Shown: one piece after another, positions 16,746 through 35,233 of the stretch
Layout of the letters: the number at the start of each line of letters is the position of its first letter
How positions within the stretch are numbered: position 1 is the stretch's first letter
Assembly (NCBI GenBank): GCA_048885865.1
Contig: JBHLLF010000005.1
Location: forward strand, 1-64,000
From: Candidatus Hermodarchaeota archaeon
Lineage (GTDB): Archaea > Asgardarchaeota > Thorarchaeia > Thorarchaeales > Thorarchaeaceae
Length of the DNA: 64,000 bases
Reading direction: 5' to 3'
Notes under the pieces: model-generated
The model's database searches: none
Told to the model about the DNA's origin: nothing
What the model saw: only the letters and a program-made list of their open reading frames with translations
Program-made: the position numbers and the translations under genes

Positions 16746-18152
16746 TCAGGAAGGCAGATGCTCCATGCAGTTCAAGGCGCTTCCAACCTGAACTCTTACT
16801 AGTTTCTGGATAGGAATTACTTCGAAATTTGTCCCCTTCAGGGTCCTTTTCACTGTGGACTCGACGTACTCGTTCAATTCGCTCTTGATTTCTGACAGCA
16901 TCTTGCTTTGGTTTGGATGTATCAGCATGGCTTCATCACACAATCTAGCTGTCATTGCGGGTCTAAAAGCACCATAGTATCTAGAAGCAGTCTTGGAGTC
17001 AAAGGCTTGAGCTACTGTTGCCTTTCCCTCATACATCGAGTCAGTCTTGGCGTGATGCATTTGAGGGGCAATTCGTTTCTCAAAGTTATCAATTGCATCT
17101 GCCACAGAACTGAAGATCTTAGACTTGGGGTCACAGAGGTTTCTAAATCGATTAAACCTCTCCTTGGTATATTTGTGAACTTCTATGAAGAAATCATATG
17201 AGTCTAGAACCAGCTTGCGACGGTCCTCTTCGGTAGGGGAGTCATCATCTAAATCCCGGTCATAGAAATAGGGCATCTCACAGACGAGAGTGAAACCACG
17301 ATTGCTAGTCACTCTTTTGAGATAGTCGTCTGATGATGTGCCACACAGAATGAGTTCCTGTGGGTTTTCTACCCCGTTTGCTTCGTAGAAGTCATAGTTC
17401 TCCGATATGCCAAACATTTGATAGATGCCAGGATGAAACTCCTTTAGGTAGGGCGCTTCAGGCTCTCCTTGATGTAGGGGCAGTTTTTCACGTTTTACAA
17501 GATTCACAAGTCCTGAAAACATCTCCTCGATTCGATGGCTGATGTAGTAGTAGACTCCACAGAATCCTGCATTATGAAGGCTGAACATGAAATCAGGCTT
17601 GGTTTCATCAATGATACGCATCAAGGCCCGTGTTTCCGGTGGGGAGTCAGTGAATTTGAGTTTCTTGTATTCGATAGGGAATGTCCACTCCATCTGCTCA
17701 TGTGAAGCAGGCCTATAGTAGTGCTTTGCGTACTTAACGGGATCAAAATCGCCCTTGAACCAACCCTCGTTCAGTGCTGCTCCATCAGGGTCAATCACCT
17801 TGATCAAGTGCCAAGTGAATCCTGTCTTCTTAGTGAAATCGGGGTTTTCGGCCAGATACTTGGACAGAAACTCCACAGTCATGCTGCCGATTGGCTCATT
17901 GGGATGAGGAAATGCAAAGAGCAGCGCGTTTCGGTCACCCGTGCCTATCTTCAGACATGATATTGGTCTTCCCTCCCTAGACTCTCCTATTTTCTCGAGA
18001 GTGACCTCTGAGAAATCTTCTGCGAGTTTCTTACTTGAGTTATCGAGTTCTTCAACCGTCATGAACTCTCTATATGTCGGAACTGCATCTAGGACCTCAT
18101 CAAAATTCAACAGTCTATCCTCCGCTGGCTGATGCTCTGTATGCAGAGACAC
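16746..18152 (-). CDS. M14-family zinc carboxypeptidase
   Basis: GESREGRPI, HPNEPIG, DPDGA, FSLHN, VCEMPY. Confidence 0.87.
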   Translation of the reverse strand: MSLHTEHQPAEDRLLNFDEVLDAVPTYREFMTVEELDNSSKKLAEDFSEVTLEKIGESREGRPISCLKIGTGDRNALLFAFPHPNEPIGSMTVEFLSKYLAENPDFTKKTGFTWHLIKVIDPDGAALNEGWFKGDFDPVKYAKHYYRPASHEQMEWTFPIEYKKLKFTDSPPETRALMRIIDETKPDFMFSLHNAGFCGVYYYISHRIEEMFSGLVNLVKREKLPLHQGEPEAPYLKEFHPGIYQMFGISENYDFYEANGVENPQELILCGTSSDDYLKRVTSNRGFTLVCEMPYFYDRDLDDDSPTEEDRRKLVLDSYDFFIEVHKYTKERFNRFRNLCDPKSKIFSSVADAIDNFEKRIAPQMHHAKTDSMYEGKATVAQAFDSKTASRYYGAFRPAMTARLCDEAMLIHPNQSKMLSEIKSELNEYVESTVKRTLKGTNFEVIPIQKLVRVQVGSALNCMEHLPS

Positions 18153-18492: not shown

Positions 18493-18513
18493 AGAAGTGG
18501 TAGCAGGTAGATG
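18493..18513 (-). repeat. Isolated copy of the tRNA-iMet 3'-end-like motif
   Basis: AGAAGTGGTAGCAGGTAGATG matches 27022-27042 at 20/21 positions. Confidence 0.7.
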
Positions 18514-19380: not shown

Positions 19381-20322
19381 CTAACTGGATTTGTAGAGAT
19401 CCGTACTAAGGTACTTGACACCTGAATCAACCAGCAACGTGACAACTGTGGCACCAGGTCCCAGTCTCTTGGCTATTCTGATTGCTGCCGCTACATTTGC
19501 TCCTGATGAGGTACCTGCACAGAGCCCCTCTTCTCTTGCCAGCCGTCTTGCCATCTCCTTGGCCTCTTTGGTGGGAATGCGAACAATCTCATCGACTAGA
19601 CTACTATCCCATAGGGGTGGAAGAAATCCTATCCCAATGCCCTCTATATCATGTGAACCACTCTCCCCTCCCGACAACACCGGGGACTCGTCCGGTTCAA
19701 CAGCGACAATTCTCACCCGTGAGTTGCGTTCTCTCAACGTTCTGGAGGTACCAATAATAGAACCAGCAGTCCCAGCCACATGCACGAAGGCATCGACTAG
19801 GCCATTCGTCTGTTCCCATATCTCTTCACCCAATTGGAGATAGCCAGACACATTGTCCTTATTGTACAGTTGATTTGTCCAGTAAGTACCTGGTTCATCA
19901 CTCAGCTCTCGGGCGGCCTCTATCATCTTCTCGATTAGTTCTTTCCTGATCCCAAGACCCTCGCTTGGAATAATTGTGACTTCTGCACCAAGAGCCCTCA
20001 TGTGGTCTAGTTTCTCTTGACTAAACGCATCAGAGGAAACAACACGAAAACGATATCCTTTGATAGCACAGATAAATGCCAGCGATGTTCCTGTGCTCCC
20101 TCCAGTATATTCCACCACCGTGCTACCAGGACCTAATCTCCCGTCTTCCTCTGCTTTTTCAATCATGGCTTGAGCCATGCGATCTTTCATACTTCCCGTG
20201 GGATTCTCCCATTCTAGCTTGACTAGCACTCTACCATGGTCTTGAGGAACCACCTTTTTCAACTGCACTAAGGATGTATTCCCAATCGCATCCAAGGCAT
20301 CTTCGGCAATCTTCACGCTCAC
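19381..20322 (-). CDS. cysK: Cysteine synthase (PLP-dependent) family protein
   Basis: KLEWENPTGSMKDR, GTAGS, IEGIG, SSGAN, DSGVKYLST. Confidence 0.88.
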   Translation of the reverse strand: MSVKIAEDALDAIGNTSLVQLKKVVPQDHGRVLVKLEWENPTGSMKDRMAQAMIEKAEEDGRLGPGSTVVEYTGGSTGTSLAFICAIKGYRFRVVSSDAFSQEKLDHMRALGAEVTIIPSEGLGIRKELIEKMIEAARELSDEPGTYWTNQLYNKDNVSGYLQLGEEIWEQTNGLVDAFVHVAGTAGSIIGTSRTLRERNSRVRIVAVEPDESPVLSGGESGSHDIEGIGIGFLPPLWDSSLVDEIVRIPTKEAKEMARRLAREEGLCAGTSSGANVAAAIRIAKRLGPGATVVTLLVDSGVKYLSTDLYKSS

Positions 20323-20415: not shown

Positions 20416-20572
20416 AGCGGGTAGATGGCGGGCTTCGGAAATCTTATGTTGGATATCAGCGCATAGTTCTAGTTCAGAGTGTTGTCATATCTATGACACA
20501 GCCTCAAAATTCTCTGTTTGTCTAAGAGAATACAGCGACTTCTTACATTCCAACACCATTGGGAGGAGAATA
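20416..20572 (+). repeat. Conserved upstream element copy 1 (promoter plus structured leader)
   Basis: Homologous to 22512-22681, 24760-24930 and 27019-27190. Confidence 0.9.
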
Positions 20573-22477
20573 ATGGAAAGAAATCAAATGACTGCCATGG
20601 TAATGGTTGTAATCGTGATTATGGGAGTTGGACTAGGCTACGTTCTCATGACTCAGCCAACAAGGCCGCCGATTGACGAGTACATCTATGAAACAATAGG
20701 CAATCCCATCAGTATGGACCCACACGTCAATTACGAGAGTCTTGGTGTCTTCGTACAGGAACAAGTCTATGAAACACTATACTACTACCCATTTAGTGCG
20801 AATAGTACAATGCCCTCCATGCCTCTATTGGCATCTGCGGCTCCAGTCATTTCGGCAGATGGTCGACAATACAACATCTCCCTTCGTCAGAACGTCATCT
20901 TCCATGATGGTACACCATTCAATGCCAGTGTGGTCAGATGGAATGTCGAGAGGGCAGTAAAGACTTTCCGTCTCGCGGGTCAAGTCTGGATGATCATTAA
21001 GCCACTCAGAGGCGGCTTGGCAGTGGAGGAAGCTGCCTATGGTGAAGGGACTGATTCACAGGCGTTTACTGATGCATTTGACGACTGGGTCGCCAACTCC
21101 GGCGCAATCGTCGTTCTAGACACCTACACCATCCAGTTTAACCTTGAGGAAGCATTCGCTCCATTCATTGCAGCGATGACCTTCAGAGTAGGAGCTATGA
21201 TGAGTCCTACCTATGTCCTGTCCAACCCGTGTAACGACTCAGTTCCCGTTGGTGGCGACTGGAGAGAACACTATGGCAATGATTATGGCGAGTGGGAATC
21301 CACCTGGATGGAGAACCACACCTGTGGTACAGGTCCATATATGCTAGAAGAGTGGAAACCAAACGAGTATATCCACCTACGCCTGTTTGAGGACTACTGG
21401 AGAGCTGATGCCACGGAAGCAGCTATAAGACCACCAGCCTATGCGGGTTCAGTCAAGCACATCTGGTGCAGGAACAACGAAAACTGGACACTCAGGAAAG
21501 AGAATCTCGTGACTGGTGTTGTTGACGATACGTATTGGCCGACTACGTACTGGGAAGAGATCTATGACAAAGACACGCAGGGCAGCAAGGATCCAAACAT
21601 CTTTGTCAGAACCGGCGGTGTTTCATTCACAGTGATGGCACTCTCGTTCCAGATGGGAATAATGAACTGGTCTCTTACCAATGGGTCCAGCGTCGAGACT
21701 TACGCTCCGAGTCACTGGAGAGAGTTTCGGAACATGATGGCATATCTCCTAGACTATGATGCCTGCATCCAAGCGGTCTACGAAGGTTGGACTGTCAAGG
21801 CACAGGGCCCAATTCCGATTGAAATGCACTACCATAACGCAAGCTATTGGACCGAACATTATGACCTACAGATTGCAGTCGAGTACTGGAACGAGGCCAT
21901 GCAGGACCCAGGCTTTGTGGGCGTCATGAACACAATCGAGGGTGACATCAAGCTCTACTACAACGAAGGCAGCGCCACACGAGAGCCGGTCTTTCTGCTT
22001 GTGAAGGAGTGCTTCGAAGACATGAAACAGCTGCCTCAAATGAACACAACAGGACTGGACTACGAACCAAAGTTCACGCCCATCGGACTCCCCTGGTCCC
22101 CCAGTCTCATGACAGGGAGCGACCCTGAGCTGTCGATGTGGGTCACAGGCTGGATACCGGACTACTCAGACCCTGACAACATTTTGACACCATTCTTGCA
22201 CTCTGAAGGTGTGTTTGCGCAGATGTTTGGCTACAGCAACAGTGTGATGGATGACTTGATTGTGCAAGGCAGGGCCGAGACCGACCCAGTTGCTAGGCAG
22301 CAGATCTACAACCAGATCCAGAAACTGGCCGCCTATGACCGTCCATCGTTGTGGCTGTACTCGCCATCGGAGTTTACAGTATTCAGGGCATGGCTGAAGG
22401 GAACTGGGTTGAGATACCAACCAGCGTCCTCGTATTACTACATCTACCACGTGTACAAGGACTACGAGAACTACTAG
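20573..22477 (+). CDS. ABC transporter family-5 substrate-binding protein, paralogue 1 (N-anchor only)
   Basis: DPH..YETL, LRQNVIFHDGTPFNAS, CGTGPYML, GWIPDYSDPD, R.QIYNQIQ. Confidence 0.9.
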   Translation: MERNQMTAMVMVVIVIMGVGLGYVLMTQPTRPPIDEYIYETIGNPISMDPHVNYESLGVFVQEQVYETLYYYPFSANSTMPSMPLLASAAPVISADGRQYNISLRQNVIFHDGTPFNASVVRWNVERAVKTFRLAGQVWMIIKPLRGGLAVEEAAYGEGTDSQAFTDAFDDWVANSGAIVVLDTYTIQFNLEEAFAPFIAAMTFRVGAMMSPTYVLSNPCNDSVPVGGDWREHYGNDYGEWESTWMENHTCGTGPYMLEEWKPNEYIHLRLFEDYWRADATEAAIRPPAYAGSVKHIWCRNNENWTLRKENLVTGVVDDTYWPTTYWEEIYDKDTQGSKDPNIFVRTGGVSFTVMALSFQMGIMNWSLTNGSSVETYAPSHWREFRNMMAYLLDYDACIQAVYEGWTVKAQGPIPIEMHYHNASYWTEHYDLQIAVEYWNEAMQDPGFVGVMNTIEGDIKLYYNEGSATREPVFLLVKECFEDMKQLPQMNTTGLDYEPKFTPIGLPWSPSLMTGSDPELSMWVTGWIPDYSDPDNILTPFLHSEGVFAQMFGYSNSVMDDLIVQGRAETDPVARQQIYNQIQKLAAYDRPSLWLYSPSEFTVFRAWLKGTGLRYQPASSYYYIYHVYKDYENY

Positions 22478-22511
22478 TGCCTCCTGGAGTTCTGCAGTAT
22501 ACCATATATGC

Positions 22512-22681
22512 AGAAGAAGTGGTGGCGGATAGATGGCGGGCTTCGGAAATCTTATGTTGGAACCCAGCGCATAGTTCTAGTTCATAGTGTTGTCATATCT
22601 ATGATGCAGCCTCAAAGTTCTCTGTTTGTCTGAGAGAATGCAGCGACTTCTTTCATTCTAGCACTAGTAGGAGGAGAGTGA
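22512..22681 (+). repeat. Conserved upstream element copy 2
   Basis: See copy 1. Confidence 0.9.
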
Positions 22682-24724
22682 TTGCGAAGAGAGCAATTGA
22701 CCGCCATCATATTGATTGCAGTCATGGCTGTGGGAGCTGGCGCCGTCATTGCCTTTGCCACTCAGTCTACTAGACCACCAGTTGATTCGTTTGTGTATGA
22801 ATATCCTCCTGGTCCTTACCTTTTGGACCCGCATATCTATTGGGGGAGTGAACAAATCGAACAGGTCTATGAAACGCTGTATACGTACCCATGGGGAAGC
22901 GGGGAACGTGGAGGTCATCCTGAGAGCACTCCAACCATACCCCTCTTGGCTGCAGGTGCTCCAGTCATCACAGAGAATGGAACCGTGTACACCATACCAC
23001 TTAGGCAAGGCATAACCTTCCATGATGGAACTCCTTTCAATGCCAGTGCAGCTGTCTGGAACTTCAAGAGAGCCATGAAGATGTTCGCCTACGGTTCCGT
23101 AGGAGCAATTGCCGATGCTATCAAGGGCGGCATGCAAGTGAGGGATGCCGCCTCGACATACGGCACGGCCTCAGATGAGTTCAAGGCCGCATTCGATGTC
23201 TGGGAGGTCACGGACGCAGTAGAGGCTACCAACACTTACGAGGTCACCTACAGACTGGAACAACCAGCTGCCCACTTCATACCAGCGATGACCAACGGGT
23301 TGGGTCGCATGATGAGTCCTACATTCGCCGAGAAGCATGCATCCACTCCTGGAGCCTCATTCGGAGTTGACTACGGCGAGGAACTCACCTACATGTACAA
23401 CCACACCTGTGGGACCGGCCCCTACCAGGTCGTTGAGATGAAGCAGCATGAGTACGTCCACATGACCCTTAATGAGGACTACTGGAGAGCTGACGCGACT
23501 GAGGCCGCAATCGCGCCTCCGTCTTACGCTGGCTCCATAAAGGAAATCTGGAGCAAGGTCAACGCCGACTTGATAAACAAGAAAGAGAACCTTCTGAATG
23601 GATTCGTTGATGCCTTCTTCTGGCCGCCAGGATGGCATACGGACGAGATCTACGACAGCGTCACATTGGGTAGCAAGGACCCTAACATATTCTTCAGGAC
23701 CGGTGGTGTGCGGTATCACGTGGTAGGAATATCATTCGAGATGGGATTGGTGAACTGGACTGGATCACCGGACTTCGAGGCCTACTCCCCATTCCACTGG
23801 AGAGCACTCAGGAACATGCTGGCATGGTTTCTCGACTACGATGCCATTATCCAAGCGCGTTACGGTGACTTGGCGGTCCGAGCAGAAGGTCCAATCCCGG
23901 TTGGTACGCCCTACCAGAACAGTAGCTATTGGACTAAACAGTCCGATCCAGAAACTGCAGTTGAGTATTGGAACGAGGCTATGCAAGACCCTGATTTCAT
24001 AGACACAATGAATACAATTGGGTGCGAGATCCCGTTCGCCCTAAGTCATTGGAACGATACAACAACACATCTGGTTTCTCTACAGCTGAAGGAAGGGTTC
24101 GATGCCATGAAACAGATGCCCCAAATGAACATGACAGGATTGAACCATGAACCCGAGATTAGCCTGTATCCTCCATCCCATCCGTGGTTCCCGTCTTCTT
24201 TCCCGATAGATAGAGAGCTGATACATACATGGAGCAGTAGAGCTCACTACGCCGATACTGACGCCTTTGTATTTCCATGTCTACACTCTTCTGTGGCTCG
24301 ATGGTACGGCTACAACAACAGCGTGATGGACGACCTGATCATGCAAGGCAGGGCCGAGACCGACCCAGTTGCAAGACAGCAGATCTACAACCAGATCCAG
24401 GAACTGGCCGCCAACGACCGGCCATTCCTGTGGCTGTGCTGGCCTAGAGAGTTCACCACGTTCAGAGCTTGGCTGAAGGGTATTGGCTTGAGATTCCAGC
24501 CATGGACGTGGCATTACATCTACCATGTGTACAAGGAATATACGACGACCACAACATATACGACGACAACGGGCGCGACAACTTTCACATCGCCAGAGCT
24601 TTCCGACATTGGCTCACTAGTGCCTATCTACTTTCTAGCAGGACTCGGATGGGCAGTGGTTGTTGTTCTTCTCATTGCATTTCATAGATGGAAACCTAGA
24701 GCACAAAGTACAGTAAACTATTAG
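22682..24724 (+). CDS. Family-5 substrate-binding protein, paralogue 2 (Thr linker plus C-terminal TM)
   Basis: Same SBP motifs; TTTT linker and hydrophobic C-terminal helix; TTG start after AGGAGG. Confidence 0.9.
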   Translation: MRREQLTAIILIAVMAVGAGAVIAFATQSTRPPVDSFVYEYPPGPYLLDPHIYWGSEQIEQVYETLYTYPWGSGERGGHPESTPTIPLLAAGAPVITENGTVYTIPLRQGITFHDGTPFNASAAVWNFKRAMKMFAYGSVGAIADAIKGGMQVRDAASTYGTASDEFKAAFDVWEVTDAVEATNTYEVTYRLEQPAAHFIPAMTNGLGRMMSPTFAEKHASTPGASFGVDYGEELTYMYNHTCGTGPYQVVEMKQHEYVHMTLNEDYWRADATEAAIAPPSYAGSIKEIWSKVNADLINKKENLLNGFVDAFFWPPGWHTDEIYDSVTLGSKDPNIFFRTGGVRYHVVGISFEMGLVNWTGSPDFEAYSPFHWRALRNMLAWFLDYDAIIQARYGDLAVRAEGPIPVGTPYQNSSYWTKQSDPETAVEYWNEAMQDPDFIDTMNTIGCEIPFALSHWNDTTTHLVSLQLKEGFDAMKQMPQMNMTGLNHEPEISLYPPSHPWFPSSFPIDRELIHTWSSRAHYADTDAFVFPCLHSSVARWYGYNNSVMDDLIMQGRAETDPVARQQIYNQIQELAANDRPFLWLCWPREFTTFRAWLKGIGLRFQPWTWHYIYHVYKEYTTTTTYTTTTGATTFTSPELSDIGSLVPIYFLAGLGWAVVVVLLIAFHRWKPRAQSTVNY

Positions 24725-24759
24725 GCAGCCATCCAGTGTAGAAGGACTATGGATTCTAG

Positions 24760-24930
24760 AAAGAAGTAGTTGCAGATAGACGGCGGGCTTCGCAAATCTT
24801 ATGTCGAAACCCAGCACATAGTTCTAGATCACAGTGTTGTCATATCCATGACACAGCCTCAAAGTTCTCTCTTTTTGTCTGAGAGAATGCAGCGACCTCT
24901 CACGTTCCAACACTAGTAGGAGGAGAACAC
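24760..24930 (+). repeat. Conserved upstream element copy 3
   Basis: See copy 1. Confidence 0.9.
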
Positions 24931-26964
24931 TTGGGAAGAGACCAGCTGACCGCAATCGTATTGATCGTAGTTATGATTGTGGGAGCTGGTAGTGTCCTTG
25001 TCTTAGCCACTCAGCCTACTAGACCACCAATTGACTCGTATGTATATGAGATGGAACCATATAATGGGTACTTTATCGTGTCTATCGATCCTCACTATCA
25101 TTATGGCGACGATGGAAGTATTGCAGTGATTGAACAGGTCTACGAAACCTTGTATACCTATCCATGGGGAAGCGGCGAACGTGGGGGCCATCCTGAAAGC
25201 ACTCCAACCATACCACTCTTGGCTGCGGGTCCGCCGACGATATCTGAGAATGGTACTGTCTACACTATAGAACTGAGGCAAGGCGTCACCTTCCATGATG
25301 GGACTCCATTTAATGCCAGCGCAGCAGTGTGGAACTTCAAGAGAGCCATGAAGATGGGTCTGCGTTATGCCGAACTGATCAAGGGTGGGACGGAAATGAA
25401 GGATGTTGCCCGGGCATATGGCTCGACTTCAGATGAGTTCAAGGATGTGTTTGAAGCCTGGGAAGCCACAGACGCAGTAGAGGCTAGCGGTACATATGAA
25501 ATCACCTACAGACTGGAAGAAGCGGTCGCATTCTTCATTCCAGTAATGACCGATCCAACTTTCTGCATGATGAGCCCTACCTTCGCCGAGAAACATGCAG
25601 TGAATCATAGCGATTCATTCGGAGTAGAATACGGCGAGATATTCACCTACATGTGCAACCACACTTGTGGGACTGGCCCCTACAAGGTGGTTGAGTTGAA
25701 GAGAAGTGAGCACGTCCGCATGACACTCAACCAGAACTACTGGAGAGCTGAAGCGACTGAGGCTACGATTGCACCTCCACTCTATGCTGGCTCGATAAGG
25801 GAGATTTGGTTCAAGGCTAACGAAGACCAGACAAGCATGAACCTGAACCTCAAGAATGGAGTCGCTGACGACACTTACTGGCCGTCATCGTATGCGGACG
25901 AGATCTATGACAGCGTTACACTTGGTAGCAAAGACCCTAACATCTTCTTCAGAACCGGTGGTGTGTCCTCTTACATGAGTGGATTCCGGTTCCAGATGGG
26001 AATAATGAACTGGACTATCGGGTCGGACACCTTTGAGATTTACTCCCCATTCCACTGGAGAGGGCTCAGGAAGGCCATGGCGTATCTCCTCGACTACGAT
26101 GCCTATATCCAATCGGTAACCAGTGGCTGGAACGTCAAGGCACAAGGACCGATTCCGGCTTGGATGCCTTACCATAACTCGAGTCATTGGACTGAGCATT
26201 ATGAACCAGAGATTGCAGTCGGGTATTGGAATGACGCCATGCAAGATCCCGATTTCGTGGCTGTCATGAACGCAATCAGGGGCAAGATCATACTCCCCTA
26301 CCATGTCTTCCAAAACCCCCTAGAACTGATCTCGTTGCTGCTGAAGGACGGTTTCGATGCCATGAAACTACTGCCTGAGATGAACACCACGGGATTGGAC
26401 TACGAGCCAATGATCACGCCTGCGCCCTCCTATATCGGCCTTCCTCGTGAAGAGCCGCTGCTACTGTCAAATCAATGGATTGCTAGGTACGCTGACCCTC
26501 ACGACCTCGTATTCTTCTACCTACACTCCAGAGGTTATTCTTCACAGTTGCAGGGTTACAACAACAGCGTGATGGACAACCTAATCATGCAAGGCAGGGC
26601 CGAAACTGACCCAGTCGTCAGACAGGACATCTATAACCAGATTCAGGAACTAGCTGCCTACGACCAACCATTCTTGGGGCTGTACTCGCCCAAGGAGTTC
26701 ACCACGTTCAGAGCTTGGCTGAAGGGCATTGGTCTGAGATACCAGCCATTATGCTCGTATTATTACATCTACCACGTGTACAAGGATTATACGACAACGG
26801 ACACGACGACCACACCCGGAGATCAGATTACAACTGGCACTCCACTCCCCACATCGCCAGAGCTTCCCGACATCGGCTCACTAGTGCCTATCTACTTTCT
26901 AGCAGGACTCGGATGGGCAGTGGTTGTTGTTCTTCTCATTGCATTTCATAGATGGGAATCTTGA
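24931..26964 (+). CDS. Family-5 substrate-binding protein, paralogue 3
   Basis: Same SBP motifs; C-terminal anchor nearly identical to paralogue 2. Confidence 0.9.
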   Translation: MGRDQLTAIVLIVVMIVGAGSVLVLATQPTRPPIDSYVYEMEPYNGYFIVSIDPHYHYGDDGSIAVIEQVYETLYTYPWGSGERGGHPESTPTIPLLAAGPPTISENGTVYTIELRQGVTFHDGTPFNASAAVWNFKRAMKMGLRYAELIKGGTEMKDVARAYGSTSDEFKDVFEAWEATDAVEASGTYEITYRLEEAVAFFIPVMTDPTFCMMSPTFAEKHAVNHSDSFGVEYGEIFTYMCNHTCGTGPYKVVELKRSEHVRMTLNQNYWRAEATEATIAPPLYAGSIREIWFKANEDQTSMNLNLKNGVADDTYWPSSYADEIYDSVTLGSKDPNIFFRTGGVSSYMSGFRFQMGIMNWTIGSDTFEIYSPFHWRGLRKAMAYLLDYDAYIQSVTSGWNVKAQGPIPAWMPYHNSSHWTEHYEPEIAVGYWNDAMQDPDFVAVMNAIRGKIILPYHVFQNPLELISLLLKDGFDAMKLLPEMNTTGLDYEPMITPAPSYIGLPREEPLLLSNQWIARYADPHDLVFFYLHSRGYSSQLQGYNNSVMDNLIMQGRAETDPVVRQDIYNQIQELAAYDQPFLGLYSPKEFTTFRAWLKGIGLRYQPLCSYYYIYHVYKDYTTTDTTTTPGDQITTGTPLPTSPELPDIGSLVPIYFLAGLGWAVVVVLLIAFHRWES

Positions 26965-27018
26965 GCACAAAGTGCGGGGTTCATTGCGAGAGCAATCTGA
27001 AATGCTGGAGAGGGTTTG

Positions 27019-27190
27019 AGAAGAAGTGGTAGCGGGTAGATGGCGGGCTTCGGAAATCTTATGTTGGAAATCAGGGCATAGTTCTAGTTCAGAGTGTTGT
27101 CATATCTATGACACAGCTTCAATGCTCTCTCTGTTCGTCTGAGAGGGTGCAGCGACTTCTTACATTCCAACACTAGTAGGAGGAGAACAC
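27019..27190 (+). repeat. Conserved upstream element copy 4
   Basis: See copy 1. Confidence 0.9.
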
Positions 27191-29284
27191 TTGAGAAGAG
27201 ACCAGCTGACCGCCATCATATTGATCGGAGTCATGATTGTGGGAGCTGGCGGTGTCCTTGTCTTCGCCACTCAGCCCACTAGACCACCAGTTGATGCATA
27301 CGTGTATGATATAGGAGAAGGTCCCAACACCTTGGACCCGTACACTACTTTTTGGGGTAGCATGATCGAACAGGTCTATGAAACGCTGTATACGTACCCA
27401 TGGGGAAGCGGGGAACATGGAGACCATCCCGAAATCACTCCAAGCATACCCCTCTTGGCTGCAGGCGCTCCAGTCATAACAGAGAACGGCACCGTGTACA
27501 CCATACCCCTCAGGCAAGGCATCAATTTCCATGATGGTACTCCGTTCAATGCCAGTGCAGCTGTCTGGAATTTAAAGAGAGCCATGAAGATGTTCCACAT
27601 TTCGAGTCTCATTGTCGATGTTATCAAGGGTGGTATGCAAGTGAAGGATGCTGCCTCGACATACGGCACGACCTCAGATGAGTTCAAGGCCGCATTCGAT
27701 GCCTGGGATGCCACAGACGCAGTAGAGGCTACTGACACCTACGAGGTCACCTACAGACTGGAACAACCGGCAGCTCACTTCATTCCAGCGATGACCAACA
27801 CGTTCGGTTGCATGATAAGTCCCACATTCGCCGAGAAGCATGCAACGAGTCCCGGAGTCTCATTCGGAGTCGACTACGGCGAGGAAATCACCTACATGTA
27901 TAACCACACTTGCGGAACCGGCCCCTACCAAGTTGTCGAGTGGAAGACAGGCGAGTATGTCCACATGACCCTGAATGAGGACTACTGGAGAGCCGACGCG
28001 ACTGAGGCCGCAATCGCACCGCCATCCTACGCCGGCTCGATAAAGGATATCTGGTGCAGGATAGACGAAGACTGGACAATCACGAGCCTGTGCAATGACT
28101 TTCGGAATGGAGTCGTTGATGCCCTCAACTGGCCATGGTCGCAGAAGGATGAGATCTACGACAGCGTCACAATGAGTAGCAAGGACCCGAACATCTTCAT
28201 CAGGACCGATGGTGTGGACTCTTTCATCGAGGGAATAAGGTTCGAGATGGGATTGTTGAACTGGACCGGCCACTCGGAGGACTACGAGGCTTACTCCCCA
28301 TTCCACTGGAGAGCACTCAGGAACATGGTGGCGTATCTTCTCGACTACGATGCCATTGTCCAAGGGGCATACGGTTTCTGGGCGTTACGAGCAGAAGGGC
28401 CAATTCCGATTGGAATGTGCTACCATAACGCGAGCTATTGGACTGAACACTATGATCCAGAGATTGCAGTCGAATACTGGAACGAGGCCATGCAGGATCC
28501 CGAATTTATAGACACTATGAACACGATCGGATGCCAAATCCCGCTCGCCTGCAGCTATTCGAACAGTACGCTAGATCTGGTCTATCTACAGTTGAGGGAC
28601 GGCTTCGAGGCCATGAAACAACTGCCCCAAATGAACACCACAGGCTTGGATTGCGAACCAAAGATCCGCTTCTGGACCCCATGGCTCTATATCTATAGGT
28701 ACTACGATGTTCCGATAGGAAACAGAGGGCTGATAGGGCATTCCTGGTGTGTATCGAGCTATGCCGACCCTGACGGCTTTCTATTATCGTGCCTATACTC
28801 CAGATGCATTCAGGCTCAGCAGGTCGGTTACAACAACAGCGTGATGGACGACCTGATCATGCAAGGCAGGGCTGAAACTGACCCTGTTGCGAGACAAGAC
28901 ATCTACAATCAGATCCAGGAACTGGCTGCCTACGATAGTCCATACCTGTGGCTGTACTCGTTCAAGGAGTTCAGCACATTCGGAGCGTGGCTGAAGGGCA
29001 TAGGCATGAGATACCAGCCTATGTCACGTTACTATTACATCTACCACGTGTACAAGGATTATACCGGGTGTTGGTGGGATTATACGACGACAACGGACAC
29101 GACAACAACGGACACAACAACCACAACGGGCCCAACAGGTGATCAGGAGCCACAGCCCCTGGGGCTGTATCCACTTGTTCTAGGAGGTTCAGGTGTCGTT
29201 ATAGCAGTGGCTGCGGTCTACATTATCTATCGTAAAAGATCGGATATTGCAGCTGCTACCGAAGCAGTCCTCTGGGGAACTTAA
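27191..29284 (+). CDS. Family-5 substrate-binding protein, paralogue 4
   Basis: Same SBP motifs; Thr linker and a different C-terminal TM. Confidence 0.9.
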   Translation: MRRDQLTAIILIGVMIVGAGGVLVFATQPTRPPVDAYVYDIGEGPNTLDPYTTFWGSMIEQVYETLYTYPWGSGEHGDHPEITPSIPLLAAGAPVITENGTVYTIPLRQGINFHDGTPFNASAAVWNLKRAMKMFHISSLIVDVIKGGMQVKDAASTYGTTSDEFKAAFDAWDATDAVEATDTYEVTYRLEQPAAHFIPAMTNTFGCMISPTFAEKHATSPGVSFGVDYGEEITYMYNHTCGTGPYQVVEWKTGEYVHMTLNEDYWRADATEAAIAPPSYAGSIKDIWCRIDEDWTITSLCNDFRNGVVDALNWPWSQKDEIYDSVTMSSKDPNIFIRTDGVDSFIEGIRFEMGLLNWTGHSEDYEAYSPFHWRALRNMVAYLLDYDAIVQGAYGFWALRAEGPIPIGMCYHNASYWTEHYDPEIAVEYWNEAMQDPEFIDTMNTIGCQIPLACSYSNSTLDLVYLQLRDGFEAMKQLPQMNTTGLDCEPKIRFWTPWLYIYRYYDVPIGNRGLIGHSWCVSSYADPDGFLLSCLYSRCIQAQQVGYNNSVMDDLIMQGRAETDPVARQDIYNQIQELAAYDSPYLWLYSFKEFSTFGAWLKGIGMRYQPMSRYYYIYHVYKDYTGCWWDYTTTTDTTTTDTTTTTGPTGDQEPQPLGLYPLVLGGSGVVIAVAAVYIIYRKRSDIAAATEAVLWGT

Positions 29285-29398: not shown

Positions 29399-29477
29399 AG
29401 CGGGTTGGGGAAGCCAGGCCAATCCCGCAGGGCTCATAACCCTGAGATCGGAAGTTCAAATCTTCCACCCGCTACCA
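29399..29477 (+). tRNA. tRNA-iMet (CAT), initiator type, CCA encoded
   Basis: AGCGGGT/ACCCGCT acceptor with A1:U72; CAGGG-CTCATAA-CCCTG with three G-C pairs; GGAAG-TTCAAAT-CTTCC T arm; upstream AAACCCTTAATA promoter. Confidence 0.96.
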
Positions 29478-29898
29478 TTTCTTTCTCCAATATTGCAAGA
29501 AAATGAATTCCTGGCTTCCACGATGAAGGCATCAATTATACTCATGGGAGGAAGCCAGGTCCGGCTGTTTCTCAAAATGGCTCCGGCGGTGGAGTAAATG
29601 GTTTCAAACCCCTGGGTTCTTGAGGAGGAGCAAATAGTTTGTTACTAACTAGTTCTTTTTGCCGTAGTATCATTGCGATCAAAATGAGATGCGGTTTTCT
29701 TGGCAGAATCCCATTCAGCAGTTCATTGCATTTTGAACCCGCTCTACAGTTCAGTTCTTAGCAAAATGACGCCTTTGAGAGTGAGGGTTCTTATAGGGAC
29801 TTAATAAGTCCCAGGTGTCAATTTCTCAAGAAACTCAATGAAGATATAGCCAGTAGTGCGCACGGAGTTCTGACCAGGAAAATCTGGAAGGGTTACAA

Positions 29899-34048: not shown

Positions 34049-35233
34049 TTGAACAGCATGGACCCCCTCATCTTTCTAGCAATTGCAGCAGTCATCTGGA
34101 TTCTCGTCTTCATCCTCGCTCAGTATATTGGTTTTGAGAAGCTCAACCAACGGGGTATTGAGGCTAGCACACCGTTCTTCCTCCTCATCAAGACAGAGAG
34201 ATTGAATGCATTTCTCACAAAGTGGGGGAAGAAGTTCCCACGAGTCTTTTGGAATGCCGGGATAGTTGTTGGCTTCGGAGGAATGATTGTCGGTTTCTAC
34301 ATCTTTGCTGATAACTTCATCAAGTTCTTCATCCAGCCTGCCCAGGCTGGCGGGGTTGTGCCAATCATTCCTGGAGTGACAATCACTGGTCTTCCTCTAA
34401 TCTACATGCTGATCGGCCTTGCTGTGACTCTTATCACCCACGAGTTCGCTCATGGACTGGCTTCATCGCGTGAAGACATTCCGATAAAGAGCTCAGGCCT
34501 TCTCTTCTTCTATGTGATATTTGGAGGATTCGTCGAGCCTGACGAAGAAACGTTTGAGCAAAAGGCTGGACCAAAGTCAAGGATGCGAATGCTTGCCGCA
34601 GGGTCCTTTGCCAACCTAATCACCGGACTCATAGTCTTCATACTGATAGCTAACTTCAATCCTATAGCGTCGATTGCCTATAATCCACCAAACGGAGCTT
34701 ACATCTATGAAACGCAGGCAGGGTCACCAGGGGCTGCAGCTCTACAGATTGGTGATGTCATTGTCGGGCTTAATGACACAGAGATAGCCACATGGGGTGA
34801 CGTTGATCGATTCATGGATAATGCGACATCCGGGTCTTTGCTTACCATATATACCACGAACCCGTTGACGAATGACACGACGATAATTCTTGCTGAAAAT
34901 CCTTCCAATGCATCGCAGGGTTATATCGGAATCTTTGGCGCAGACTATTGGGAACCAAAGCCGGGCTGGGATGTGATACTCACGCCTCTCACTGTATTCC
35001 ATGCGCAACAGATTCTCATCTGGCTGTGGATCATTCTGGTTTCCATAGGGTTGCTCAATCTTCTCCCAATACCTGCGTTTGATGGGGACAAGCTGCTGAG
35101 CAATGCGCTGAGTCTTGTCACCGATGATGAGAAGAAGATTAAGTACGTGATGTGGCCGGCACGAATACTCTCTATCACAATTCTCCTCGGCAGCATTATC
35201 CTCAGTCTAGTCTTAGGGAAGGCAATATTCTAG
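34049..35233 (+). CDS. Site-2 protease (M50) with PDZ-like insert
   Basis: THEFAHG, GGFVEPDE, AAGSFAN, NLLPIPAFDG. Confidence 0.93.
   Translation: MNSMDPLIFLAIAAVIWILVFILAQYIGFEKLNQRGIEASTPFFLLIKTERLNAFLTKWGKKFPRVFWNAGIVVGFGGMIVGFYIFADNFIKFFIQPAQAGGVVPIIPGVTITGLPLIYMLIGLAVTLITHEFAHGLASSREDIPIKSSGLLFFYVIFGGFVEPDEETFEQKAGPKSRMRMLAAGSFANLITGLIVFILIANFNPIASIAYNPPNGAYIYETQAGSPGAAALQIGDVIVGLNDTEIATWGDVDRFMDNATSGSLLTIYTTNPLTNDTTIILAENPSNASQGYIGIFGADYWEPKPGWDVILTPLTVFHAQQILIWLWIILVSIGLLNLLPIPAFDGDKLLSNALSLVTDDEKKIKYVMWPARILSITILLGSIILSLVLGKAIF

Follow-up and report, generated by a model that had tools for sequence, protein, structure and literature searches.

Introduction

In riboswitches, the nucleotides of the junctions and of the aptamer core are more conserved than the helices. 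In Thermococcales, a dispersed regulon that includes genes of solute-binding proteins is marked by the glycolytic motif, consisting of single palindromes of ~17 bp that are bound by regulators of the TrmB family. In addition, promoter reuse and putative mobile promoters have been described in prokaryotes, where highly similar upstream regions stand before unrelated genes both within and between related genomes (PMC3575422). Here, we analysed an element of ~150 nucleotides (nt) upstream of four tandem genes of solute-binding proteins in a metagenome-assembled genome of Candidatus Thorarchaeota (listed as Candidatus Hermodarchaeota archaeon; GenBank assembly GCA_048885865.1, contig JBHLLF010000005.1). 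The window is the whole stretch of 64,000 nt that was analysed, i.e., positions 1 to 64,000 of the forward strand. We lean towards reading the element as a lineage-specific module of a promoter and a cis-acting leader that marks a regulon.

The element shares features with each of the described systems. Like riboswitches and structured 5' leaders of transporter genes (Rfam), it has a 5' position, precedes many genes, has a nested architecture of inverted repeats (the candidate stems P1, P2 and P3) and ends beside the Shine-Dalgarno (SD) sequence. In contrast to them, it has no Rfam match and no significant covariation in P1 and P2, its stems are more conserved than its junctions, and its gene set names no ligand. 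With the glycolytic motif it has in common a palindrome near the promoter, a dispersed set of genes and the presence of solute-binding proteins in this set, but its conservation extends over ~105 bp past the predicted transcription start and its P3 repeat has a variable spacer. With promoter reuse (PMC3575422) it shares the occurrence of similar upstream regions before unrelated genes; the element differs, however, in that it is old, includes a ~105-nt leader under block-wise selection and showed no hallmarks of mobile elements.

Results

Four element copies in a tandem gene array

The binding-protein array consists of four tandem SBP_bac_5 genes, each of which has its own upstream element. 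An earlier, sequence-only reading of this DNA had described four copies with a TATA-like box, the stems P1, P2 and P3 and an SD sequence, and all of these were found where it had placed them. The substitutions that it listed are also correct, namely AGCACT in P1 and ATGAT in P2 of copy 2, a loop change in copy 3 and an altered P3 in copy 4. The features are as follows, where BRE denotes the transcription factor B recognition element, J2/3 and J3/1 denote junctions, and aa denotes amino acids.

20430..20576, + strand: element copy 1, with BRE/TATA-like box 20436-20449, then a variable spacer; start codon ATG 20573
Stems of copy 1, + strand: P1 5' arm 20478-83; P2 20484-97; P3 hairpin 20509-31; J3/1 block 20533-50; P1 3' arm 20552-57; SD 20562-68
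20573..22477, + strand: SBP_bac_5 gene 1, 634 aa, with N-terminal membrane anchor
22538..22684, + strand: element copy 2, with BRE/TATA 22544-57; SD 22670-76; start codon TTG 22682
Stems of copy 2, + strand: P1 5' arm 22586-91; P2 22592-605; P3 22617-39; J3/1 22641-58; P1 3' arm 22660-65 (AGCACT)
22682..24724, + strand: SBP_bac_5 gene 2, 680 aa
24785..24933, + strand: element copy 3, with BRE/TATA 24791-804; SD 24919-25; start codon TTG 24931
Stems of copy 3, + strand: P1 5' arm 24833-38; P2 24839-52; P3 24864-88; J3/1 24890-907; P1 3' arm 24909-14
24931..26964, + strand: SBP_bac_5 gene 3, 677 aa
27045..27193, + strand: element copy 4, with BRE/TATA 27051-64; SD 27179-85; start codon TTG 27191
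Stems of copy 4, + strand: P1 5' arm 27093-98; P2 27099-112; P3 27124-48; J3/1 27150-67; P1 3' arm 27169-74
27191..29284, + strand: SBP_bac_5 gene 4, 697 aa

Each copy consists of four parts: the BRE/TATA-like box, a fast-evolving spacer of 27 nt, a slow-evolving leader of ~105 nt, and the SD sequence with the start codon. In these four copies, the box reads CG(G/C)AAATCTTATGT, the 5' arm of P1 is AGTGTT, P2 is GTCAT/ATGA(C/T), and GGAGGAG begins 4 nt past P1. The copies are 85-90% alike, and chance similarity was ruled out (nhmmer E-values of 1e-52 to 1e-55). Identity was 0.81-0.89 in the element versus ~0.65 in the coding sequence and 0.25-0.5 in the remaining spacer, so that no other part of the 2.2-kb duplication units is as well conserved as the element. 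No BPD_transp_1 permease gene occurs on the 131-kb contig that carries the array. Hence, the genes of the solute-binding proteins are truly orphan, as the earlier reading had maintained.

Distribution across genomes

Three further copies, ~75% identical to those of the array, were found in the same genome; one precedes the gene of a 110-aa protein, one that of a membrane protein of 187 aa and one that of a protein with BNR repeats. A covariance model (R1) built from these seven copies detected, at a cut-off of E<1e-6, 60 copies in 28 of the 86 genomes of one Thorarchaeota family, spread over five of its 16 genera and reaching ten or more copies per genome. The earlier proposal of a cis element that is conserved 5' of genes is thereby supported, and the distribution is wider than had been claimed. 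With a model restricted to the leader (R2), no copy was found in 125 searched genomes of other families of the phylum. A metagenome scan with the core motif yielded only 10 contigs, five of them with full elements, which mostly duplicated genomes already in the set. When the source genome was searched for a complementary small RNA or more partial copies, only chance 12-14-mers were found.

Every copy is oriented toward a start codon and directly adjoins it, although in about ten copies this codon lies ~45 nt from P1. Across genera, each subfamily of the element stays with its own gene family. Copies upstream of the 110-aa protein share a deletion of 5 nt in the P3 loop, and those upstream of Beta_helix proteins share a rewritten P3. 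This concordance implies that the association between element and gene is old.

Copies are often paired on neighbouring genes, with one promoter-leader per gene instead of an operon. Examples are 105388-105535 (-) and 103414-103561 (-) on contig C1 of genome G000, and loci of genomes G004 (L043), G016 (L025/L034) and G076 (L056). Partial copies (L023, L033, L024, L046, L051, L045) have kept the promoter box, AGTGTTG and P2, while P3 or the 3' half is gone; they precede additional gene families (160-aa, 416-aa secreted and 293+ aa). In L024, the J2/3 block CAAGACT, which nearly duplicates the 3' arm of P1, is a perfect pairing partner of the 5' arm GGTCTTG.

Genes downstream of the element

The proteins encoded downstream form at least 18 unrelated clusters. 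The element is thus not tied to genes of solute-binding proteins, the only setting in which the sequence-only reading had described it. Homologous upstream regions stand before non-homologous genes with differing Pfam families, which is the pattern that defines promoter reuse. The downstream families are:

SBP_bac_5: 8 copies
Beta_helix/NosD: 12 copies
110-aa protein of no known family: 8 copies
187-aa membrane protein: 4 copies
Secreted protein of ~250 aa: 4 copies
Others: Amidohydro_3, Beta-lactamase fold, Abhydrolase_1, DUF7948/SBBP, BNR, FIMAH, and several unknowns besides

An N-terminal hydrophobic segment was present in 37 of 50 downstream products. Not all members of the set are exported; the chief exception is the 110-aa protein (107-114 aa, N-terminus MPYIVTHSWYPTHKIPE), encoded at L019:1163-1492 (-) and by seven orthologues, one of them at 30949-31344 on contig C26 of G000. 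It matched no Pfam family, and the ESM Atlas gave only Asgard hypothetical clusters; it was dropped as a possible regulator for these reasons.

The 3' end of many copies consists of the 17-mer TAGGAGAGGAGAGAATG, which comprises the SD sequence and the start. The same 17-mer also occurs without a leader at 34687-34703 (-) on contig C1 of G000, which suggests that this organism commonly uses it as a strong ribosome-binding site.

Putative promoter box and rates of change

Similarity between copies begins, at its 5' boundary, with a box of the form CGGAAACCTT(A/T)TGT. Upstream of tRNA genes in the same genome we found similar boxes (CCTTAATA, CTTTTATA and CCTTTTAT), which are preceded by A-rich purines and lie 32-36 nt upstream of the mature 5' end; a tRNA-Met gene is preceded by GAAAACCCTTAATA, which likewise resembles the 5' box of the element. 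Archaeal promoters have an A/T-rich box that follows a purine-rich BRE and is located ~25-30 nt before the transcription start. Because of the resemblance to the tRNA boxes, we interpret the box of the element as a putative BRE/TATA promoter. Transcription is accordingly predicted to start ~26-32 nt past the box, i.e., 2-10 nt before AGUGUUG.

For 56 copies placed on a tree, parsimony gave the following numbers of changes per column:

Upstream of the box: 14.5
BRE/TATA: 4.9, with an A/T wobble at one position
Spacer: 11.0
P1 5' arm: 1.0
P2: 4.9
J2/3: 8.1
P3 stems: 3.8
P3 loop: 11.6
J3/1: 6.7
P1 3' arm: 2.5
Linker and SD: 8.8

The time elapsed is sufficient to randomise unconstrained positions, and conservation sets in at the predicted transcript start. 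This onset of constraint is our main argument for a function in the transcribed leader. Among the parts of the leader, the stems (P1 1.0/2.5, P3 3.8, P2 4.9) evolve more slowly than the junctions (J2/3 8.1, J3/1 6.7). Conservation is not limited to the P2 palindrome but extends far past TGTCATA-N2-TATGACA, in agreement with the earlier reading. The CAGC motifs that it called invariant, by contrast, vary in the wider family. Likewise, the upstream TGTTGGAA proposed as an alternative pairing partner is present in all four copies of the array, but it is specific to them and its position is 5' of the predicted start of transcription. Taken together, the contrast between blocks and the likeness of copies before unrelated genes show, at the level of sequence comparison, that the element is real and that its leader is under purifying selection.

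Stems P1, P2 and P3

We used a tree-aware null test to assess covariation in a wider alignment of 56-60 copies. It gave p-values of 0.40 for P1, 0.13 for P2 and 0.04 for P3, and base pairs that had changed on both sides numbered 5 versus 4.7 in shuffles. Covariation is thus marginally supported for P3 and not significant for P1 and P2.

The compensatory changes and variable loop length show that P3 is a real hairpin. In the Beta_helix subfamily, its arms have changed from UCUCUCAG/CUGAGAGA to UCCUUAGG/CCU(C)AAGGA, with double changes in seven sequences at each of two pairs. The P3 loop varies freely in length and sequence, with a difference of 5 nt between subfamilies. Local hairpin z-scores were -3.0 for P3 and -2.5 for P2. 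P2 may be either a local hairpin or a palindrome, and comparative support is equivocal: one copy is compensated (GUCG/CGAC), one has a change from G-C to A-U and one has a 9-nt loop insertion, but there are many uncompensated mismatches. Its spacing is fixed in 53 of the 56 copies.

For P1, we found no double changes and no significant covariation in the wider alignment. Its mean pairing probability was 0.03 in partition-function folds of 55 leaders, and it was not predicted in alignment folds of four or seven copies. Nevertheless, eight transitions in the 3' arm of P1 were all G-U-forming, versus three A-C events in P1, and one copy without P3 retains P1 via two wobble changes. With RIBOSUM scoring, RNAalifold recovered P1, P2 and P3 as a three-way junction, whereas with default scoring of 56 leaders these stems were not obtained. 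Hence, the consensus fold depends on the scoring parameters.

Several other structures were tried and rejected. Neither a stem around the TATA box nor a hairpin or palindrome in the interval from TATA to P1 showed excess stability (z about 0) or a pairing bias. Pairing of CAAGA in J2/3 with UCUUG in J3/1 showed consistent uncompensated mismatches in several subfamilies, and a fourth small hairpin in J3/1, suggested by RNAalifold, showed many mismatches. A search with cmscan against 4227 Rfam families at E-values up to 10 yielded only a tRNA and two chance matches, in line with the earlier reading, which had been unable to assign the element to a riboswitch class.

Flanks of the array

Upstream of the array lie genes of a Peptidase_M14 carboxypeptidase (16749-18152, - strand) and of an enzyme dependent on pyridoxal phosphate (19384-20322, - strand), both without the element. 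A motif GTGGTAGCGGGT occurs ~10-20 nt 5' of the promoter box in the four units of the array and is exact in copy 4. Sites of this type are located at 27026-27037 (+) and 22519-22530 (+), with another near-copy at 18497-18508 (+). In reverse complement, the motif corresponds to the 3' acceptor end of the nearby tRNA-Met (29399-29477, + strand), with one mismatch (29467-29478, minus strand). Element copies elsewhere lack it, and it is therefore part of the duplication or cassette unit rather than of the leader.

Discussion

A proposed promoter-leader module

Our preferred reading, held with somewhat more belief than doubt, is a lineage-specific module of a promoter and a cis-acting leader. The module would comprise an archaeal BRE/TATA promoter, a freely varying spacer and a leader of ~105 nt, which would begin a few bases before AGUGUUG and end at the SD sequence and start codon. 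Its copies precede many unrelated genes, which mostly encode binding proteins and hydrolases that are exported. Even genes in tandem arrays carry one copy each, and this leads us to propose that the module marks a co-regulated set of genes, i.e., a regulon. It probably spread via promoter-leader reuse before the genera split and would then have been kept by selection.

The leader would act in cis on the mRNA and would carry two local hairpins, P2 and P3, whose arms are conserved in sequence. Conserved arms combined with free loops make recognition by a protein, or a three-way sequence constraint, likelier than a ligand pocket. The module is probably recognised by a protein. Such a trans-acting protein may bind the RNA or, at P2, possibly the DNA; alternatively, the leader may have a role in mRNA stability or translation. 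As for the three-way constraint, the pyrimidine tracts in the 5' arm of P3 and in J3/1 (CUUCUU) complement the purine-rich SD sequence, which is mimicked by the 3' arm of P3. The choice of partner by the pyrimidine tract (SD or 3' arm of P3) could thus tune translation. In the Beta_helix subfamily, the SD region changed from GGAGAGG to GGAAAGG jointly with both arms of P3 (UUCCUU/AAGGAA). This joint change is a single lineage event and is suggestive only.

Several results weigh against this reading. Comparative support for RNA pairing is weak, and the ratio of G-U to A-C events, which was 8:3 in P1, was 11:14 in P2 and 16:14 in P3, so that P2 and P3 show no strand bias. Folding showed no preference for the plus strand, and the reverse complement even folded slightly better (-22.9 versus -20.8 kcal/mol; z-scores of -1.35 versus -1.5). 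At 0.33, predicted SD accessibility was the same as in 149 control genes that have an SD sequence (0.39). In the copies with a start codon ~45 nt past P1, the SD sequence is not close to P1, and hence this proximity is not universal. The argument for action at the RNA level is built on the promoter-like box and the rate profile, and we identified no candidate trans factor. Moreover, where orthologues encode the 110-aa protein, conservation of the leader does not exceed that of third codon positions; it is for this reason that the case for selection was built on the contrast between blocks and on the likeness of copies before unrelated genes.

Alternative explanations

Control at the DNA level only, in which the P2 palindrome TGTCATA-N2-TATGACA, and possibly other inverted repeats, would be operators for transcription factors just past the start site and the RNA would have no role, is in our view unlikely. 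It would account for conserved arm sequences next to variable spacers and loops, the balance of G-U and A-C events in P2 and P3, the lack of a strand preference in folding, the constant P2 spacing, and the partial copies that retain promoter, AGTGTTG and P2 only. However, it leaves ~80 more conserved bases past P2 unexplained, and a dimeric operator would not tolerate the free loop sequence of P3 and its 5-nt difference between subfamilies. Furthermore, the three inverted repeats have no common half-site. Archaeal repressors usually bind between the TATA box and the transcription start, but the 27 nt from TATA to the predicted start are the least conserved part of the element.

We also regard as improbable that the element is a passively propagated cassette of promoter and untranslated region that provides strong constitutive expression and mRNA stability without condition-specific sensing. 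The homologous upstream regions before non-homologous genes are what promoter reuse would produce (PMC3575422), the unit spans exactly BRE to start codon, and the purine-rich ribosome-binding 17-mer is also found in the genome without the leader. The leader nevertheless shows strong block-wise selection, with 1-4 changes per column versus 11 in the spacer, and the gene set is strongly skewed to exported proteins. These two results speak against a generic strong promoter and for a specific function that is common to the copies.

A low probability also applies to the leader as a class of structured regulatory RNA that is new and specific to Asgard archaea, in which a three-way junction closed by P1 at the 5' end of the mRNA would bind a small molecule or a dedicated protein and thereby coordinate the translation or stability of mRNAs for exported hydrolases and binding proteins. 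Slightly less likely still is the more specific proposal of a metabolite-sensing riboswitch, in which a ligand would stabilise P1 in this three-way junction, 4-5 nt before the SD sequence, and so control access of the ribosome. It would fit the 5' leader position before many genes, the three-way junction obtained with RIBOSUM scoring, the eight G-U-forming transitions versus three A-C events, and the two wobbles by which the copy without P3 keeps P1; in the absence of a matching Rfam class, it would be a new class. But P1 shows no covariation, hardly pairs in the partition-function folds, and is missing from the alignment folds of four and seven copies and from default RNAalifold on 56. The stems are more conserved than the junctions, unlike in aptamer cores, no metabolic pathway or ligand is suggested by the gene set, and about ten copies have no SD sequence adjacent to P1. 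SD accessibility is not below that of controls, and we rejected SD occlusion as a special property of these genes. A riboswitch, including one restricted to a narrow lineage, is therefore conceivable but unsupported. Of the sequence-only interpretation the leader element thus stands, while its SD-occluding riboswitch, for which covariation, folding, rate profile and SD accessibility offer no support, is still a guess.

A mobile repeat such as a miniature inverted-repeat transposable element, suggested by the 7-bp inverted repeat AGTGTTG/CAACACT around ~80 bp and by several copies per genome, was rejected, because all 60 copies lie in one context (between promoter box and start codon) and one orientation, copies within a genome are only ~75% alike, and the alignments contain no target-site duplication or flanking direct repeat. 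A leader peptide was rejected as well: the upstream reading frame that begins at an AUG within P2 and ends at a UAG ahead of the SD sequence is open in the consensus but not conserved, as frames from AUG or GUG in P2 stop after 2-28 codons and are shifted by indels of 2 nt and 5 nt.

Implications for Thorarchaeota

To our knowledge, the regulation of genes in Asgard archaea is almost unexplored, and no cis-regulatory RNA from this group has been characterised. The promoter-leader module defines, from sequence alone, genes that are probably expressed together in uncultured Thorarchaeota, namely those of exported hydrolases, solute-binding proteins and small unknown proteins. As such, it would offer a handle on the control of nutrient scavenging in these sediment heterotrophs. 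A compact RNA of 110 nt and a promoter fragment of 150 bp make it testable in vitro and in metatranscriptomes. Should the leader be shown to bind a protein or ligand, it would represent the first class of regulatory RNA that is specific to this lineage.

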